This document shows positions 13,726-56,643 of a DNA stretch of 64,000 bases, in pieces (positions within the stretch are counted from its first letter, which is position 1; the number at the start of each line of letters is the position of its first letter). The position numbers were made by a program, and so were the translations under genes. Where the stretch lies: assembly GCA_046297935.1 (NCBI GenBank), contig JBKBHA010000004.1:297447-361446 (forward strand), given 5' to 3'. This DNA is from Chitinophagaceae bacterium (lineage in GTDB: Bacteria > Bacteroidota > Bacteroidia > Chitinophagales > Chitinophagaceae). Below the pieces are notes generated by a model. It was not told the origin of the DNA. It made no database searches and saw only the letters and a list, made by a program, of their open reading frames with translations.

Positions 13726-13970
13726 GTGTGCAAATGTGCAAATGTGCAGGTGTGCAAGTGTGTAATTGGAATTTGCTAATTTGTTAATTCGCTAACTTGA
13801 TTTTTATTGGCGAATCTTTCAATCAGCGCAATCTGCGTTAAAATCTGCGTGATCTGCGGGAAAAGAACTGTTGCCCTTAAGAAAGATTACAAACAGAGCA
13901 GACTTTCTGTTCCCACAGATGAAAAATCCACTTCCCACTCTCCACTCCCCATTCCCCACTTCCCCCTCTC
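13726..13970. repeat. Composite intergenic repeat element, copy 1. Left arm (TGTGCARR)x5, core with four ATCWGCG boxes + GGGAAAAGAACTGTTGCC ... CTGTTCCCACAGAT, right arm (CCACTYC)x6 = (GRGARTG)n on the other strand.
   Basis: Read directly from the sequence. It shares core motifs with the element at 54729-55322. It lies between two convergent 3' ends. Confidence 0.6.
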
Positions 13971-24248: not shown

Positions 24249-26078
24249 ATGAAGACACTTTTTCGCTATCTCAAACCATACAAATGGTTGGTAGGCCTGG
24301 TGCTGTTACTGGCCGCCATCAATATAGGTTTCTCTCTCATCGATCCCATCATCTTTGGTCGCCTGGTTGATCTGGGTACTTATCATCTGGATAAAGGACA
24401 TGAGCCACTTTCGCAAAACGAATTCATGTTTAGCAAGGGCATTCCTTATACAAACTCGAAAGGCGAAAGCGATAAAGTATATGGTGTAGCCTGGTTGTTA
24501 CTTGCTTCCATTTCAGTAGCCATGGTGAGCCGTATTGCCAAAGCTTTTCAGGATTACTTCCTTAATAAGGTGACCCAAAAGTTTGGAGCAACCGTATTTA
24601 CAGATGGACTTCAACATGCCATGAAGTTGCCTTATCATGATTTTGAAGATCAGCGAAGCGGCGAAACTCTCGGCATTTTGCAGAAAGTGAGAACCGATAC
24701 CGAAAAATTCATATCAACATTCATTAATGTTCTTTTTCCCGTTATAATAGGTATTTTGTTTGTGGCAGTATATGCCTTTACGAAAGACTGGCGACTCCCT
24801 TTCATTTATTTCGGCGGCATCTTTCTGCTCACATTCATTTCGAATGTGCTGAGCAAAAAAGTAAAGATTATCCAAAAGCAGATCGTATCGCAAACCACCT
24901 CACTGGCTGGTGCTACCACTGAATCGCTGAGGAATATTGAACTGGTAAAAAGTCTGGGACTGACCCGCCAGGAAGTAGACCGTTTGAACAAAAATACTTT
25001 TAAGATACTTGGATTGGAGCTGACCAAAGTAAAGCGCATCCGCAGCATCAGTTTTGTGCAGGGTACTTTTGTCAATACCTTGCGCCAGGTAATCCTGTTC
25101 ATGTTGATGTGGCTGGTTTTCCAGGGCGATCTGTTGCCTGGCGAAATCGTAACGATGCAAATATTCAGCTTCTTTGTATTTGGACCGTTGCAGGAAATCG
25201 GTAATATTATCCTCAGCTACCGCGAAGCCGAAGCCTCACTGAACAATTTCGAAAGCCTGATGAGCAAGAAGCCCGAACCGCAGGCAGCCAATCCACAGCA
25301 CCTCGGGCCTATCAAAACGCTCGATTTCCAGGAAGTAGGTTTTCGTCATCAGTCGGCACAGCAGGCTGCAATCAACGGGATCAACTTTTCGGTGAGAACC
25401 GGCGAAACCATTGCTTTTGTCGGACCCTCGGGTTCAGGCAAAACGACGTTGATGAAATTGCTCGTAGGCCTGTATCGCCCACAGCAGGGTAAGATACTCT
25501 ATAATGGACACGACGAAAACTCAATCAGCTTCGACGACCTCCGCTCGCAAATTGGATTTGTAACCCAGGATACACAACTGTTCAGCGGCACCATTCGCGA
25601 AAACCTGTTGTTTGTGAACCCCGGCGCTACCGAAGAAGAGTTATACAGCGCGTTGAATAAAGCCTCCTGCCAGAACCTTCTGGCACGTGCCGAAAAGGGG
25701 CTCGACACTGCAATTGGTGAAGGTGGTTTGAAATTATCTGGTGGAGAAAAGCAGCGTCTGTCAATTGCAAGGGCCCTGGTCAGACAACCCAAACTGTTGT
25801 TGTTCGATGAAGCAACATCGGCGCTCGACTCCCTTACCGAAGAAGAGATCACCGATACCATCCGCGAAATTTCAGCGCTTGGCAATCAGATCACCATATT
25901 GATCGCCCACCGCCTCAGCACCATCATGCACGCCGATCGAATTTATGTGCTGGAAAAAGGTGACGTAGTGGAAACCGGCAACCACCAATCACTCCTTTCC
26001 GAAAAAGGCCTCTACTACGCCATGTGGCGTCAGCAGATAGGCGAACGGAAAGAAAGGAAAGAGAATGTGGAAATGTGA
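24249..26078 (+). CDS. ABC transporter, fused permease/ATP-binding protein (MsbA-like exporter)
   Basis: Six N-terminal TM segments. Walker A GPSGSGKTT, signature LSGGEKQR, Walker B LLLFDEATSALD. Confidence 0.85.
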   Translation: MKTLFRYLKPYKWLVGLVLLLAAINIGFSLIDPIIFGRLVDLGTYHLDKGHEPLSQNEFMFSKGIPYTNSKGESDKVYGVAWLLLASISVAMVSRIAKAFQDYFLNKVTQKFGATVFTDGLQHAMKLPYHDFEDQRSGETLGILQKVRTDTEKFISTFINVLFPVIIGILFVAVYAFTKDWRLPFIYFGGIFLLTFISNVLSKKVKIIQKQIVSQTTSLAGATTESLRNIELVKSLGLTRQEVDRLNKNTFKILGLELTKVKRIRSISFVQGTFVNTLRQVILFMLMWLVFQGDLLPGEIVTMQIFSFFVFGPLQEIGNIILSYREAEASLNNFESLMSKKPEPQAANPQHLGPIKTLDFQEVGFRHQSAQQAAINGINFSVRTGETIAFVGPSGSGKTTLMKLLVGLYRPQQGKILYNGHDENSISFDDLRSQIGFVTQDTQLFSGTIRENLLFVNPGATEEELYSALNKASCQNLLARAEKGLDTAIGEGGLKLSGGEKQRLSIARALVRQPKLLLFDEATSALDSLTEEEITDTIREISALGNQITILIAHRLSTIMHADRIYVLEKGDVVETGNHQSLLSEKGLYYAMWRQQIGERKERKENVEM

Positions 26079-26114
26079 AAACCTGCCTGCCGGCAGGTTT
26101 TCACATTTCCACAT
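26064..26114. terminator. Long perfect hairpin (about 24-bp stem) overlapping the ABC-transporter stop codon. Probable bidirectional terminator for the convergent genes.
   Basis: AATGTGGAAATGTGAAAACCTGCC / GGCAGGTTTTCACATTTCCACATT inverted repeat, read directly from the sequence, followed by a T-rich tract. Confidence 0.55.
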
Positions 26115-26560
26115 TATTTCTCTCCCTCCTTCTTCCTCCACCAGTCGGTGAAGAAATTGCCTTTTTCCAGTTCTTCCATATCGCTCAGTTCCCATTCCAG
26201 TGCTTTGGTGCTTTGGGAGATTTCGATGAGTGAAATGATCAGGGAAGCGAGAAGGCTCAGCAGGCTTACGGCAAACACATAACCCAGCAGTATGGTCCAT
26301 TGCTGGTAAACTCCGTACATGGTAACGACACAGCAAACAAAACTGAAAACTCCGAGTGCCTGCATGGAACGCACGAGGTTGATTCGGGTGCGAAGGATCT
26401 TGATTTGTTTGAGGAGCAGGTGGGTTTTTTCGCCACGGATATATTCATCGTGAAGCTTCCGTATCAGGTTGGCCAGTGCCAGATACCGGTTGGTATAAGC
26501 TAATAGCAACAAACTGATAGCGGGAAATAAGAGGGCAGGTGTATTGAAAGTGATCTCCAT
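26114..26560 (-). CDS. DUF2721-like small membrane protein. Start placed at the internal Met (MEITFN...).
   Basis: Three predicted TM helices and a C-terminal acidic coil, ~150 aa. The DUF2721 assignment is from memory, with low certainty. Confidence 0.35.
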   Translation of the reverse strand: MEITFNTPALLFPAISLLLLAYTNRYLALANLIRKLHDEYIRGEKTHLLLKQIKILRTRINLVRSMQALGVFSFVCCVVTMYGVYQQWTILLGYVFAVSLLSLLASLIISLIEISQSTKALEWELSDMEELEKGNFFTDWWRKKEGEK

Positions 26561-26699
26561 GGACGAACGTGTTTCGGCAAAATTAGCGTTTTCCGAAACG
26601 TTCGCAGTTAAACAGTCAGTGAATGAGTTGATTGGGCAAATTGCTAAAACGGAGCAATGCAAATTACCCAATCAACTCATTCGCAAACTGCGATGGCGT

Positions 26700-30164: not shown

Positions 30165-30557
30165 TTAGTTCTTCATATGAAAGCTGTTTCGCCAGGCATA
30201 GCTTTTAATTTCATTGTAACAAATCAGGCCATACCAGATTGCAATAAAGGGCGATGCGATCAACAGGCCGAAACCGGTAATCAGGAATAAAGGAATGGTG
30301 ACAACGGTTAAAATGCCGATGATGGCAACGGTCCAGGCATAATGACGGCGGGTAGCGCTACGCGATTGCGGCAGAGCAAAATGGTGAACGAGGCAACCAC
30401 CTACCTGCCAGCCACCAAGAACAAAATACATGGCAATAAACAGGTCACCACTCTCACGCAATCCGCTCAGCAGGCCTACAGAAAAAAACAGGATCTGCAG
30501 CCCCAAATCAATTTTCTTCACTACCAACAACATAAAATCAGGTTTAATAATTGGCAA
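30165..30557 (-). CDS. Small polytopic membrane protein, hypothetical
   Basis: Four hydrophobic segments. 130 aa. Confidence 0.3.
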   Translation of the reverse strand: MPIIKPDFMLLVVKKIDLGLQILFFSVGLLSGLRESGDLFIAMYFVLGGWQVGGCLVHHFALPQSRSATRRHYAWTVAIIGILTVVTIPLFLITGFGLLIASPFIAIWYGLICYNEIKSYAWRNSFHMKN

Positions 30558-30598
30558 ATCTTAGGGTGCGGGCGTGAAACGCCCGCACCCTAAGATTT
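30556..30598. terminator. 19-bp perfect inverted repeat AAATCTTAGGGTGCGGGCG-TGAAA-CGCCCGCACCCTAAGATTT directly after the GbsR-family gene stop
   Basis: Read directly from the sequence. GC-rich stem. Probable terminator. Confidence 0.45.
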
Positions 30599-30599
30599 G

Positions 30600-31106: not shown

Positions 31107-31165
31107 ACTATAAAGATACGATACAATATTGAAGTTTCAAATATTTCTGAAATATAGGGTTTAAA

Positions 31166-31212
31166 AATAAAAAGGCGTGAACCTGTATCTGCCGGTTCAC
31201 GCCTTTTTATCT
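31166..31212 (-). terminator. Rho-independent terminator after the flotillin gene. Stem GGCGTGAACC/GGTTCACGCC, flanked by A and T runs.
   Basis: Inverted repeat plus a T-run on the minus strand. Confidence 0.55.
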
Positions 31213-31240
31213 TTTTTAGGTTAATTATCTGGTTAGCATG

Positions 31241-51750: not shown

Positions 51751-51841
51751 ACACAAAGCCGGGCTTGCTCCCGTCTTTGTTGTGGCAGGGTTGGATACAA
51801 AAGGGGCACTCTCGAACCAGCTTAATACCTACCCCCCAGAT

Positions 51842-51880
51842 AAAGAAAGCCGGGCTTCAGCCCGGCTTTCTTTATTTTTT
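51842..51880. terminator. Bidirectional rho-independent terminator AAAGAAAGCCGGGC-TTCA-GCCCGGCTTTCTTT + T-run, between convergent genes
   Basis: Perfect 14-bp stem seen in the sequence, with flanking A/T runs. Confidence 0.6.
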
Positions 51881-53377: not shown

Positions 53378-54733
53378 GTGAAGAAGACATTTTCGATTAT
53401 TACTGTTCTCATCACCATTTCGTTGATTGGCATCATCATGATCCAGTTGTCGTGGTTGCGCAACATGATCCTGTTGACTGAGGAACAGATCAAGGGTAAT
53501 GTGGACAAAGCGATCATCAGCGTGGGAGAGGAGCTGTTGCAATACAAGAGTAATTACAATGTCAACACGCGGCGGCTCGACTCCGAAGCGTTGCTTCCCG
53601 ACGATTTTTCGCTGGAGTTTGTACAACCTATCACCCTTGGCAAACGCTTCAGCGGTGCCGAGCTATACGAGAAAATACGAATTGCCTTCGGTGCTGTAGG
53701 CCTCGATGATGTACGGTTTGAATTTGCACTTACCACCATCAATCCCAGAACCGGCGGACGCGATGTGATTGAGCGTAAATCGCCCGGCTTTCTGGAGGAA
53801 TACGACGATACGGTGAGCAACTATATGCGGGCATTTCCGCTAAGACCTCTTGGTGGATCTGCCGCTGAAAACCTGGCACCCGACGAAAATCTTGTGGTGG
53901 TAGCATTGGATGTAAAGAAGTCGGCAGTTGCCTCGCTTCGCTGGCGAATTGCCATTGCTATTTTATTTTCAATCATAATCGTGGCGGCCTTTTACTTGAC
54001 GGTACGCACTATGCTGCGGCAGAAAAAACTGGGTGAAATTAAAAATGATTTCATCAACAACATGACACATGAGTTTAAAACACCTATCGCCACTATTTCA
54101 CTGGCAGTAGACGCCATGCGCAATGAGAAAGTGCTGCAGGATCGCGATAAGATTTCCTATTTCAGTTCCATCATCAAAGAAGAAAATCAGCGAATGAACC
54201 GCCAGGTGGAGACAATTCTGAAAGCTTCGCAGCTGGAACGACAGGAAGTGAATCTGAACCTTCAGCCGCTGCACCTTCACAATATTATTGAAGATGTGGT
54301 CGAAAACTTTCAATTGCAGTTGGAGGAAAAAGGAGGTCATGCCGACATGAAACTGGAAGCCAGCAACGATCTGGTTAGTGCCGACGAAGTACATATGTCG
54401 AACCTCGTCAACAATTTGATCGATAACGCCGTCAAATATTCAAAGGAAAATGTGCCCATTGAGATCAGCATTTCTACCAGCAGCGATAGTCGTTCGTTTT
54501 ATCTGCGTGTAGAGGACAATGGAATAGGTATGAGTAAGGAAACCTTGAAGCGCGTTTTTGAACGTTTCTATCGGGCCCATACCGGCAATTTGCACAATGT
54601 GAAGGGCTTTGGCTTGGGGCTGAGTTATGTCAAAACAATCGTTCAGGCTCATGGTGGCGATGTGCGGGTAGATAGTACGCTGGGGAAGGGGAGTGTGTTT
54701 ACGTTGGAGATGCCGTTGCGGAGGGAGGGGTGA
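53378..54733 (+). CDS. Two-component sensor histidine kinase (membrane-anchored, orphan)
   Basis: H-box HEFKTPIATI. N/G1/G2 boxes (NLIDNAVKYS, DNGIGM, GFGLGLSYV). Two TM segments. Confidence 0.8.
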   Translation: MKKTFSIITVLITISLIGIIMIQLSWLRNMILLTEEQIKGNVDKAIISVGEELLQYKSNYNVNTRRLDSEALLPDDFSLEFVQPITLGKRFSGAELYEKIRIAFGAVGLDDVRFEFALTTINPRTGGRDVIERKSPGFLEEYDDTVSNYMRAFPLRPLGGSAAENLAPDENLVVVALDVKKSAVASLRWRIAIAILFSIIIVAAFYLTVRTMLRQKKLGEIKNDFINNMTHEFKTPIATISLAVDAMRNEKVLQDRDKISYFSSIIKEENQRMNRQVETILKASQLERQEVNLNLQPLHLHNIIEDVVENFQLQLEEKGGHADMKLEASNDLVSADEVHMSNLVNNLIDNAVKYSKENVPIEISISTSSDSRSFYLRVEDNGIGMSKETLKRVFERFYRAHTGNLHNVKGFGLGLSYVKTIVQAHGGDVRVDSTLGKGSVFTLEMPLRREG

Positions 54734-55322
54734 GAGGTGAAAGGTGAAAGGTGAGAGGTGAGAGGTGCGAGGTGAAAGGTGAAAGGTGAGAGGTGAGAGG
54801 TGAGACGTGAGAGGTGAAAGGTGAGAGGTGAGAGGTGAAAGGTGCGAGGTGAAAGGTGAGAGGTGAGAGGTGAGACGTGAGAGGTGAGAGGTGAAACGTG
54901 AAACGGATTCCTTTTCGGAAACAGGTCATAAAATATCTGCGCAATCTGCGTATCAATCTGTGTCATCTGCGGGAACAGAAATTTCTTTCCTGTCAGTATT
55001 TTGCCAGCGGGGGCAACAGTCCTGTTCCCGCAGATTTTCGCAGATTTTTTCTCGCAGATTTCGCAGAATTAGATCCATGCTTCACAGATTTCATCTGCCT
55101 ACATTCTGCATCGGCAGACAAGCTTCTCACCTTTCACGGCTCACGTTTCACGTCTCACCTCTCACCTCTCACCTCTCACCTCTCACCTTTCACCTCTCAC
55201 CTTTCACCTTTCACCTTTCACGTCTCACGTTTCACGTCTCACCTTTCACCTCTCACGTCTCACCTCTCACCTCTCACCTTTCACGTCTCACCTCTCACCT
55301 CTCACCTTTCACCTCTCACCTG
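54729..55322. repeat. Large composite palindromic repeat element, copy 2. (GTGARAG)x~25 left arm, ~220-bp core with 4x ATCTGCG, GGGAACAG...CTGTTCCC, 4x CGCAGAT, and (CTYTCAC)x~27 right arm, which is the reverse complement of the left arm.
   Basis: Read directly from the sequence. It fills the whole gap between the stop codons of the convergent HK and queA genes. Confidence 0.7.
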
Positions 55323-56536
55323 AGCACCAACATCCCATCCCCATAACTCAGAAACCGGAATTGTCGGCGAATGGCTTCTGCATACAGTTCCTTCCACGCA
55401 TCGCCGATCAGTGCTGCTACCAACAACAACAGTGTAGACGATGGCTGATGAAAATTGGTGACCAGCCCATCAATCATTTTAAACTGATAGCCTGGCGCAA
55501 TCAGAATTCTTGTTTTGGTTATCAGCTTTTGCTGTTGCTGCTGATCCATCCAGCTCAATAATCCCTGCAACGCTTCTTTTTTGCTGAAATGTGTTGGCAG
55601 TTCGTCGTACACCTCCCATTGACCCAATTCCGTTCCCGGCCGTAATGTTCCTGTGAGCGCCTTTACACCCAACCAGTAAACGCTTTCAATCGTGCGCAAC
55701 GAAGTAGTGCCTACCACAATTAATTTGTTTGCTTCACGGTCCAGCAATAGTTGCAGCAGTGAACGCTGCACTTCTATAAATTCAGCATGCATATCATGCC
55801 CTTCCATTTTTTCCGATTTCACAGGTTGGAAAGTGCCCGCACCTACATGCAATGTTGTGTAAGCTGTAATGCATCCCTTTATGCGCAGCGAATCCAGCAC
55901 CTCAGAAGTGAAATGCAGACCTGCAGTGGGCGCCGCCACCGATCCCTCTGCTCTGGCGTAGACAGTTTGGTAGCGCTCGCTGTCGGCCGTCTCTGGTTTA
56001 CGCCGAATATAGGGCGGCAACGGAATCTGCCCGGCCAGGTGAAGTACTTCCGCAAAGCTCAGTGATGGCTGGTCCCAGCTAAAGTTGACCAGAAATGCAC
56101 CTTCGTCCCGTCCTGCAAGACTTGCTTCCAGTGTAAACCCATGATCGGGTAGTCCCGCTTCGAGTCGCAGAACAAGCCCTTTTTTCCATTTTGATACACC
56201 CCCCACCATGCAGCGCCATTGAACCGATCCTTTTTCCTGCATGGCCGTTGGTATGTCAGGATAACGAGCAGGAGGTTCCAGGCAGAAGACTTCAATTTCG
56301 CCGCCCGAATCTTTCACAAATCGCAACCGGGCTTCCACCACTCTGGTGTCGTTAAATACAACAGTGCTGTTTTCCGGCAAATAATCCGCAATGTTCCGGT
56401 AAATGTCTTCTGCAATAATTTTCCCCTCGTAAACGAGCAATTTCGACTGATCTCGCTGTGGTAGCGGAAACCAGGCAATGTTTTCATCGGGCAAATGATA
56501 TTCAAAGTCAGTTATTGATAATTCGCGGGGGTGCAT
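55316..56536 (-). CDS. queA: S-adenosylmethionine:tRNA ribosyltransferase-isomerase. Start trimmed to MHPRELS.
   Basis: LSITDFEYHLPDENIA start, typical QueA. ~406 aa. Confidence 0.85.
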   Translation of the reverse strand: MHPRELSITDFEYHLPDENIAWFPLPQRDQSKLLVYEGKIIAEDIYRNIADYLPENSTVVFNDTRVVEARLRFVKDSGGEIEVFCLEPPARYPDIPTAMQEKGSVQWRCMVGGVSKWKKGLVLRLEAGLPDHGFTLEASLAGRDEGAFLVNFSWDQPSLSFAEVLHLAGQIPLPPYIRRKPETADSERYQTVYARAEGSVAAPTAGLHFTSEVLDSLRIKGCITAYTTLHVGAGTFQPVKSEKMEGHDMHAEFIEVQRSLLQLLLDREANKLIVVGTTSLRTIESVYWLGVKALTGTLRPGTELGQWEVYDELPTHFSKKEALQGLLSWMDQQQQQKLITKTRILIAPGYQFKMIDGLVTNFHQPSSTLLLLVAALIGDAWKELYAEAIRRQFRFLSYGDGMLVLR

Positions 56537-56643
56537 AGTGAATTCAGAAGTACATTTTCCAGCGCCTTCTGTGGCGCAAAGCACGCAAGTTAAAGATTAA
56601 GGCCCAGTCCGTCCGGAGCCTTGAATCAGCACGATTTTTGAGG

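Follow-up and report, generated by a model that had tools for sequence, protein, structure and literature searches.

A composite palindrome between a histidine kinase gene and queA in a Chitinophagaceae genome encloses a dispersed phased-heptamer repeat probably related to GxxExxY putative nuclease cassettes

The spacer between a sensor histidine kinase gene and the convergent gene queA in a Chitinophagaceae bacterium (contig JBKBHA010000004.1) is filled by a palindrome of two layers, an inverted pair of heptamer microsatellite arrays and, at its center, a core repeat with copies in many other genomes. The motif family of this core also brackets genes for GxxExxY proteins, and palindromes of this kind with such a gene in the loop occur in Chitinophagaceae; for this reason, the copies described here are best read as gene-less derivatives of a GxxExxY cassette, comparable to MITEs (miniature transposable elements with inverted repeats) or to the hairpin-forming doublets of repetitive extragenic palindromic sequences (REP and REPIN, respectively), with the main copy centered in a microsatellite palindrome of a type found in Chitinophagaceae. 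We consider this the probable explanation. It is built on observations of the anatomy of the locus, family membership and copy number, length variation and inversion between strains, filled and empty sites in relatives, and a statistical and phylogenetic coupling between the motifs and GxxExxY genes. All coordinates refer to the 64-kb stretch of DNA that was analyzed (64,000 nt, hereafter the window), and L-numbers (L001 and so on) denote comparison loci that were fetched.

The kinase gene (53378..54733, plus strand; Pfam HisKA and HATPase_c, from the open reading frame (ORF) list) ends with a TGA stop within the first heptamer of the palindrome, and queA (55316..56584, minus strand; Pfam Queuosine_synth) ends with a TGA stop within the last, so that the palindrome occupies the whole convergent spacer, as an earlier note on this DNA had described. 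The left, G-rich arm (54730..54904, plus strand) consists of 25 GTGARAG units, the number given in that note, in the variants GTGAGAG, GTGAAAG, GTGCGAG, GTGAGAC, and GTGAAAC. Tandem Repeats Finder (TRF) reported 25.0 copies of the 7-mer in the GAGGTGA register at 54721-54894, in addition to the unit list. The right, C-rich arm (55125..55321, plus strand) consists of CTYTCAC units as proposed, with a count of 28 by unit list rather than about 27, and TRF reported 28.1 copies of TCTCACC at 55125-55321. The two arms, at 177 nt each, are 89-90% complementary, and no mirror register was found when their unit lists were compared unit by unit, indicating that they are not recent exact copies of each other and that each arm slips independently.

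The center of about 220 bp between the arms contains nested inverted motifs and a 43-nt loop, in agreement with the first description. A left unique module, GGATTCCTTTTCGGAAACAGGTCATAAAAT (54905..54934, no strand assigned), separates the arm from the motif array and is inverted jointly with the core in strain L099. The left motif arm (54935..54978, plus strand) carries ATCTGCG, ATCTGCG, ATCTGTG, and ATCTGCG at 54935, 54944, 54956, and 54965, a spacing of 9-12-9 bp, followed by GGGAACAG, and the last motif with its extension, ATCTGCGGGAACAG, spans 54965-54978. The asymmetric 43-nt loop follows (54979..55021, no strand assigned), and then the right motif arm (55022..55068, plus strand), which opens with CTGTTCC and carries CGCAGAT at 55029, 55039, and 55053, with a degenerate fourth motif, CGCAGAA, at 55062; its inner end, CTGTTCCCGCAGAT, spans 55022-55035. 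The left side has the four motifs originally listed, one of them as ATCTGTG, and the four CGCAGAT motifs listed on the right proved to be three good copies and the degenerate one. A right unique module (55069..55124, no strand assigned) forms a small TCTGCC...GGCAGA hairpin by sequence and fold. Folded as a whole, the 621 nt gave -413 kcal/mol as RNA compared to -202 for shuffled sequences (z = -41) and -232 kcal/mol as DNA (z = -41), which bears out the proposal that the region can form one very large hairpin, while the 220-bp center folded alone gave z = -7.

A second, degenerate copy of the core, referred to as copy B, lies elsewhere in the window (13822..13920, plus strand), with left motifs at 13822, 13831, 13843, and 13852 in the same 9-12-9 spacing, then ATCTGCGGGAAAAG, a loop, CTGTTCCCACAGAT, and a single right motif. 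Its loop is related to that of the main locus in the opposite orientation, the reverse complement of one aligning with the other. The copy is flanked on the left by 8-mer arrays (13727..13799, plus strand), TGTGCAAA at 4.5 copies and AATTTGCT at 3.8 copies by TRF and sequence, and on the right by a C-rich heptamer array of CCACTCC at 5.9 copies by TRF (13928..13968, plus strand). Across the 64 kb, TRF found five 7-8-mer arrays of 3.5 or more copies, precisely the ones beside the two cores. The neighbors of copy B are an outer-membrane beta-barrel gene and a 580-amino-acid ORF without a Pfam match, and its short flanking arrays are unrelated ones.

The core is a dispersed repeat. A scan of one genome per species for the exact pattern ATCTGYGGGAA-N35-65-TTCCCRCAGAT returned at least 94 loci and, since only exact matches were counted, the taxonomic range and copy numbers given here are lower bounds. 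Of these, at least 49 were in a metagenome-assembled genome (MAG) of Terrimonas ferruginea, one 213-kb contig of which has at least 14 copies, and, among the matches listed, at least 26 came from a MAG labeled 'Citrobacter' and further copies from Pedobacter, Algoriphagus, Cytophagales, other Chitinophagaceae, several Verrucomicrobiota, and one Hydrogenedentales MAG. The 'uncultured Citrobacter sp.' MAG (contigs CAYMZZ01..., among L004-L094) shares synteny at 80-92% nucleotide identity, and the same repeat subfamilies, with the Terrimonas ferruginea MAG JBIQMS01; its label is almost certainly wrong. In most clusters ATCTGCG motifs precede CGCAGAT motifs, and the commonest architecture was four of each (29 clusters) in a core of about 130 nt, and the motif spacing in Terrimonas is 10-12-10, with 7-mers that are nearly invariant and spacers that vary. 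Most of the clear-cut copies are intergenic, and the density in some genomes reaches about one per 15 kb.

Several further features of this family were seen in the fetched loci. Head-to-tail arrays of the palindrome unit, with a period of about 106-124 bp and identical loops, occur in Prosthecobacter (L017:5686-6115), a Cytophagales MAG (L086:5678-6101), and Pedobacter paludis (L043:7670-7998). Many Terrimonas copies (L001, L008, L009, L022, L028, and others; for example L009:3225-3268) share a conserved 45-nt module, TTGTCAcGTCCTAAAAAAAGTTGACAcTTTcTACAnTAATCAnTT, at one end, the other end being made of different modules. This module (TTGTCAcGTCCTAAAAAAAGTTGACA...TAATCA), which lies beside the motif array, was considered as an outward promoter and rejected, as gene orientation around it was random (11 versus 10), and the segment between two half-cores in L019 was rejected as an autonomous element, as it contains ordinary metabolic genes. 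A second core family is built of CGCAAAG/CTTTGCG motifs plus ...CGCAACGAnCGCGACGATAGG (L100:5540-5720, L101:4430-4680, L019:4580-4630, L029, and L048). It sits in the orthologous queA-kinase spacer of L100 and L101, and its 7-mer is the commonest around GxxExxY genes.

The suggestion in the earlier note that this is an undescribed family fits the dispersal of the core across genomes, in the sense that no description was found in a literature of which our coverage was incomplete: keyword searches returned papers on heptamer repeats and none on the core, and full-text searches with the core sequence returned chance primer matches only. At the gathering threshold, Rfam matched only a tRNA in the whole window, and at E values up to 10 it gave only chance microRNA matches to the core. 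The core pattern had no match in 2.9 million viral contigs, nor did the core consensus match PLSDB plasmids. The repeat family is widespread in Bacteroidota, Verrucomicrobiota, and Hydrogenedentota, with neither an Rfam entry nor a description that we found.

A link to a protein family came from gene-bearing versions of the palindrome. In L055 (Terrimonas), a protein of 126 amino acids is encoded in the roughly 600-bp loop of one palindrome, and in L017 (Prosthecobacter) a homologue with 28% identity to it begins directly after the last arm of the tandem ATCTGYG palindromes. These two genes, from two phyla, are the only homologues in 0.78 Mb of fetched loci and both abut motif arms. Both proteins belong to TIGR04256 'GxxExxY' / PF13366 PDDEXK_3, a family listed as of unknown function with thousands of members (PMC3424549), whose name turned up in just two of the papers searched. 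A search likewise returned very many homologues of GxxExxY proteins, and their genes occur in several copies per genome. Within Chitinophagaceae, L055 and L186 carry the gene in the palindrome loop. A GxxExxY gene in L187 has CTGTTCC-CGCAGAT-aa-CGCAGAT-tttta-CGCAGAT-gt-CGCAGAT after it, exactly the subtype of the window (CTGTTCCCGCAGAT) in the same 9-12-9 spacing.

The coupling was then quantified in a survey of 80 metagenomic loci with GxxExxY genes. Up to 200 bp from the gene, ATCTGYG/CRCAGAT motifs occurred at 4.0-4.4 per kb, compared to 0.6 per kb beyond 400 bp. In a motif-free test, which required only that some 7-mer be present two or more times upstream, with two or more copies of its reverse complement downstream, 35 of 66 GxxExxY loci scored against 2 of 584 control positions. 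The 7-mers recovered (CGCAAAG, CGCAGAT, CACAGAT, CGCAGAG, CACAGAG, and CACAGAA) form one family, C[GA]CA[GA]A[GTA]. They are concentrated no more than 60 nt from the start and stop codons, for the most part with the CGCAGAT type upstream and the ATCTGCG type downstream of the gene, and in gene-bearing cassettes the palindrome reaches only a few bases past the outermost motif. Motif type also follows the protein: identity was 60.7% within a motif type and 51.8% between types, a difference matched in 0 of 5000 permutations, and the nearest protein neighbor had the same motif type in 44 of 55 cases. In one locus, L152:917-1006, tight tandem motif arrays, (ACGCAAAG)x4 and then (TCTTTGCG)x4, directly follow the GxxExxY gene, which hints that motif arrays and microsatellite arms may be two ends of one continuum.

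The GxxExxY protein was modeled with confidence (predicted local distance difference test, pLDDT, 91.5) as a PD-(D/E)XK fold with an invariant D...ExK motif. Foldseek returned weak matches only, all of them to the PD-(D/E)XK fold (lambda exonuclease, Cas4, and tRNA-splicing endonuclease), PADLOC and PHROGs gave weak Cas4-like matches only, and no relative was found in the Protein Data Bank by sequence. These results offer a first concrete and testable lead on the function of GxxExxY / PDDEXK_3 proteins, with candidate DNA targets that can be read from the flanks of each gene.

The arms form a separate layer. Cores in the fetched loci are almost always flanked by 7-8-mer arrays in nested mirror order, and 52% of all such arrays fall in the 12.6% of sequence near cores. 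The recurring unit families are GGTTTAA|TTAAACC, ACGTAWT, AGTAGGG|CCCTACT, CGTGAGG|CCTCACG, to which the GTGAGAG of the window belongs, and the 8-mers GTTGAWTY, and mirror pairs of arrays also enclose GC-rich mini-hairpins, a CGCAAAG/CGCGACGATAGG motif, or nothing. The arrays are polar, with G exceeding C on the 5′ side in 67 of 75 and C exceeding G on the 3′ side in 64 of 72, a striking pattern whose mechanism the model proposed below leaves unexplained. A stop codon lies within the purine-rich units in 61 of 75 and, seven not being a multiple of three, an ORF entering such an arm is therefore closed in every frame. In L100:4001-5404 (GCA_964447825, CAYUUA010000020.1), a QueA homologue was called at 467 amino acids with its ORF running through an 8-mer array (GATTTGTT on its strand), so that arrays with stop-less units can lengthen neighboring proteins.

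Orthologous loci show that the palindrome is composite rather than the single element first proposed, since the microsatellite palindrome occurs in them both with and without the core. In L099, whose QueA protein is 97% identical, the arms have 15+12 units as against 25+28 in the window, so the heptamer number does vary between strains, a point that the earlier note had proposed to check. Over 410 nt, window positions 54819-55228 match the opposite strand of L099 at 92.9% while the flanks are collinear at 96.9%, which means that the whole center and the inner parts of the arms are inverted there. Terrimonas paralogues with the same outer modules likewise have the loop in both orientations, in palindromes short enough to be assembled reliably. 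The orthologous spacer contains 8-mer arrays and a different core in L100, GGTTTAA arrays and the same second core in L101, and a mini-palindrome of 8-9-mers with no core in L102. In L104:2728-2956, from a relative with 5.2 Mb, it has no arrays and small hairpins instead (ACACACC-GTA-GGTGTGT, TCGTTCC-ATA-GGAACGA, and others), which resemble REP-like units and are also found as centers in L004 and L010. Two pairs of filled and empty sites were taken from two syntenic MAGs and record presence or absence only, whether by insertion or deletion. In L083:5416-5588, a complete core with side modules sits at the exact center of a conserved GGTTTAA|TAAACCC palindrome whose center in L032 is only 17 nt, and L074:4760-4918 has a core where L062 retains only CGCTGAT. 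In Chitinophagaceae, most intergenic palindromes are flanked by 7-8-mer arrays, which occupy many of the gaps between genes. These spacers are built of microsatellites nested in polar mirror symmetry, variable in length and orientation between strains, and they provide a natural system for the study of palindrome growth, cruciform biology, and breaks in short-read assembly.

Taken together, we propose the following mechanism. The first layer is an inverted pair of heptamer arrays, with the G-rich arm 5′, that together make an intergenic microsatellite palindrome; the arrays would change length through replication slippage while inter-arm recombination or template switching may keep the arms alike and flip the enclosed center. 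The second layer is a non-coding copy of the dispersed repeat, in which 4+4 helically phased motifs (ATCTGCG / CGCAGAT) surround a short loop. The mean motif spacing of about 10-10.7 bp places the four sites on one face of the helix. Outer spacers are significantly less complementary than chance (0.12 versus 0.34), since the two ends of the element carry different modules, and for inner spacers complementarity slightly exceeds that of shuffled pairs (0.61 versus 0.47). With RNAalifold, the covariation term of the core was 0.14 and only invariant inner stem pairs were predicted, and hairpin covariation in the core was rejected as unsupported on both measures. Judged from sequence comparison, and with 7-mers nearly invariant beside variable spacers, this suggests that the 7-mers are recognized sequence-specifically in duplex DNA, rather than selected for pairing. 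The 7-mers are candidate double-stranded DNA binding sites of a GxxExxY protein, and this putative nuclease might cut at or near the palindrome and so spread or maintain the repeats, much as RAYT does for REPINs, perhaps with a preference for palindrome centers in hairpin or cruciform form. Any effect on the flanking genes, such as a barrier to read-through between the convergent pair, would be incidental.

Several observations weigh against this explanation. No GxxExxY gene lies within the 64-kb window, and the polarity of the motifs around the gene in Chitinophagaceae is the reverse of that in most metagenome loci. The agreement between motif type and the protein tree could come from simple co-inheritance of linked DNA and not from recognition. 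Loops of gene-less copies resemble the inner ends of gene-bearing copies weakly, with z up to 5, a value raised by the stem bases they have in common. Target-site duplications were seen neither at the two filled and empty pairs nor at 26 gene-bearing cassettes, where boundaries are blurred by repeats, and the 410-nt inversion rests on two assemblies. Finally, GxxExxY genes in general show no enrichment of microsatellite arrays around them (0.14 per kb close by and at a distance alike), and the arms therefore need a separate explanation, which is still incomplete.

The alternative that fares best is that the palindrome is a structure of benefit to the host, a two-way terminator, an insulator, or a stabilizer of mRNA 3′ ends between the kinase gene and queA, with the arrays selected for stem length. 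Such a benefit, for example as a barrier between convergent genes, is compatible with the derivation from a GxxExxY cassette; as the explanation of the element we find it rather unlikely. The orthologous spacer has some hairpin-forming repeat in every relative examined (L099, L100, L101, L102, and L104), with differing sequences, and the purine-rich arms abutting the genes supply stop codons in all frames. By crude ORF calls, copies lie between tandem, convergent, and divergent genes in 41, 17, and 7 cases, compared to a baseline of 328, 91, and 81, so that cores are mildly enriched in convergent spacers (17/65 versus 91/500) and mildly depleted in divergent ones. However, most copies lie between tandem genes and seven between divergent ones, and core orientation relative to neighboring genes is random (11 versus 10). 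The element has no canonical terminator either: the loop is 43 nt, and a scan of 54600-55450 for a GC-rich stem with a 3-8-nt loop and a U-tract found no sites. A structural role would also leave the invariant phased 7-mers, the hundreds of copies, and the GxxExxY link unexplained.

We regard as improbable the possibility that the 7-mers are sites for a host DNA-binding protein, either nucleoid-associated or of the OmpR/PhoB type that acts on 7-bp direct repeats about 10-11 bp apart, with GxxExxY genes merely regulated or adjacent. The 7-mers are indeed invariant and helically phased with variable spacers. What speaks for the GxxExxY protein over a host regulator is that the motif type changes along with the adjacent GxxExxY protein, that the arrays tightly bracket the GxxExxY gene on both sides in inverted order, and that copies are present or absent as discrete units among related species, a behavior of elements and not of a regulon.

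It is very unlikely that the element is a structured non-coding RNA gene or acts at the RNA level, for example as a stem processed by RNase III like those of ORF-bearing 23S rRNA intervening sequences. The predicted folds are strong, and arms enclosing a small ORF do resemble the architecture of 23S rRNA intervening sequences. Against this, Rfam gave no match beyond the chance microRNAs, the covariation term was low, with invariant pairs alone predicted, and spacers are not complementary, and copies occur in both orientations relative to genes with no promoter-like site found, a sigma-70 promoter scan of the element region having returned no sites. There is no more reason to favor a phase-variable inverton, that is, a promoter-controlling switch flipped by a site-specific recombinase. 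The center does occur in both orientations among strains and paralogues, but it contains no promoter-like sequence, it lies between two gene ends, the copies number in the hundreds, and the breakpoints fall within long homologous arrays, where ordinary recombination suffices for inversion. The palindrome is not an assembly artefact, the outcome that would have undercut the earlier note, and a collapsed, expanded, or chimeric repeat is scarcely credible given that the same architecture recurs at this locus in an independent Joint Genome Institute metagenome contig, that the repeat family occurs in many unrelated assemblies, and that the inner palindromes of about 130 nt fit within read length. 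Short-read assemblers do fail to cross the arrays, as four Logan short-read contigs with an identical kinase gene, from four sequencing runs, all break off some 24 nt inside the array. The least certain features are therefore the unit counts and orientation, and exact unit counts could be affected by assembly.

A broader proposal, which we offer tentatively, is that GxxExxY (PF13366) proteins are putative nucleases of an unrecognized class of selfish elements, tiny cassettes bounded by inverted arrays of 7-bp motifs that would seed large numbers of gene-less palindromes, in a partnership like that of REPIN and RAYT but with a PD-(D/E)XK fold, and prefer the centers of microsatellite palindromes able to form hairpins or cruciforms. 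If true, a very large orphan protein family would gain a function, and a major share of the DNA between genes would be accounted for in Chitinophagaceae and in other phyla.

Other features of the window were noted in passing. Unusually long hairpins with stems of 17-32 bp, one of them a perfect 21 bp, lie at 26057-26122, 26613-26690, 30555-30599, 31163-31214, and 51840-51875. In the first, an 8-mer is duplicated in tandem (ATGTGGAA / ATGTGAAA), possibly as an early step toward array-armed palindromes. A likeness of GTGAAAC / GTTTCAC to half of a parS site was judged a coincidence because the full palindromic parS is absent. At 422 amino acids, the queA ORF is longer than its homologues, which have about 406 amino acids, span 96% of it, and place the organism in Chitinophagaceae; translation probably begins 16 codons into the ORF, past its first start codon.

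Compared with known systems, the arms belong to the class of heptameric simple-sequence repeats (SSRs), made up, like that class, of head-to-tail units in the 5-11-nt range that are intergenic and variable in copy number between strains. Known heptameric long SSRs include the short tandemly repeated repetitive sequences of cyanobacteria, the GGGAATC repeats that form convergent inverted pairs in Xanthomonas, and TAACTGA repeats (PMC4692102, PMC4679880), with arrays in Bacteroidetes also noted earlier (PMC4679880). The window shares with them intergenic tandem 7-mers, a G-rich strand, inverted pairs capable of forming hairpins or cruciforms, and unit numbers that vary by strain. It differs in that several array types are nested in mirror order with near-invariant polarity around a discrete repeat; for the Xanthomonas and cyanobacterial arrays, neither a core nor a tie to a protein family has been described.

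The core resembles a MITE in form, which qualifies the first statement that the element was not recognized as a MITE: the architecture of the core resembles that of a MITE or REPIN because gene-bearing versions exist. No target-site duplication was seen, at boundaries blurred by repeats, and the gene-bearing relative encodes no known transposase. Like MITEs, the copies are short and non-coding, have terminal inverted repeats, are polymorphic for presence and absence, and have longer relatives that carry a gene between the same ends (L055, L186, and L187), which does not imply that GxxExxY is a transposase; unlike in MITEs, the inverted repeats are arrays of 7-mers. A MITE of P. gingivalis carries a minisatellite (PMC4596501).

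A CRISPR array is excluded, as first stated, since the array units are contiguous with no unique spacers and tandem cores elsewhere repeat the same loops; those head-to-tail palindromes are clusters like bacterial interspersed mosaic elements (BIMEs) and not CRISPR arrays. Eukaryotic foldback elements have long inverted arms of short tandem repeats in variable copy number, and the terminal hairpins of parvoviruses have an asymmetric center in either orientation, 'flip' and 'flop'. Both likenesses are analogies only, between unrelated organisms and proteins, and no homology is claimed.

The closest system in its working is that of REP, BIME, and REPIN with the RAYT (TnpA-REP) protein (PMC3116915, PMC3337134, PMC8266576, PMC3733652). 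The copies described here are likewise high in number, extragenic, palindromic, and mosaic, single or in tandem clusters, with two inverted arms around a spacer as in REPINs, and, as for REPIN and RAYT, non-coding copies far exceed a small cognate gene, which the repeats flank and whose protein co-varies with them. The element is nevertheless not a member, as the earlier note had held for REP and BIME, differing in unit structure, tag, and protein family. The very many homologues of GxxExxY proteins, and the several copies of their genes per genome, are a further difference. Its arm is four direct, phased 7-bp motifs that are not self-complementary, in contrast to the 20-40-nt imperfect palindrome of a REP unit; its consensus, ATCTGCG(n3)ATCTGCG..., is without the GTAG/CGTC head that tags REP sequences (PMC3733652); and the linked gene encodes a PD-(D/E)XK protein of about 125 amino acids (TIGR04256 / PF13366), whereas RAYT is an HUH Y1 transposase (Y1_Tnp).

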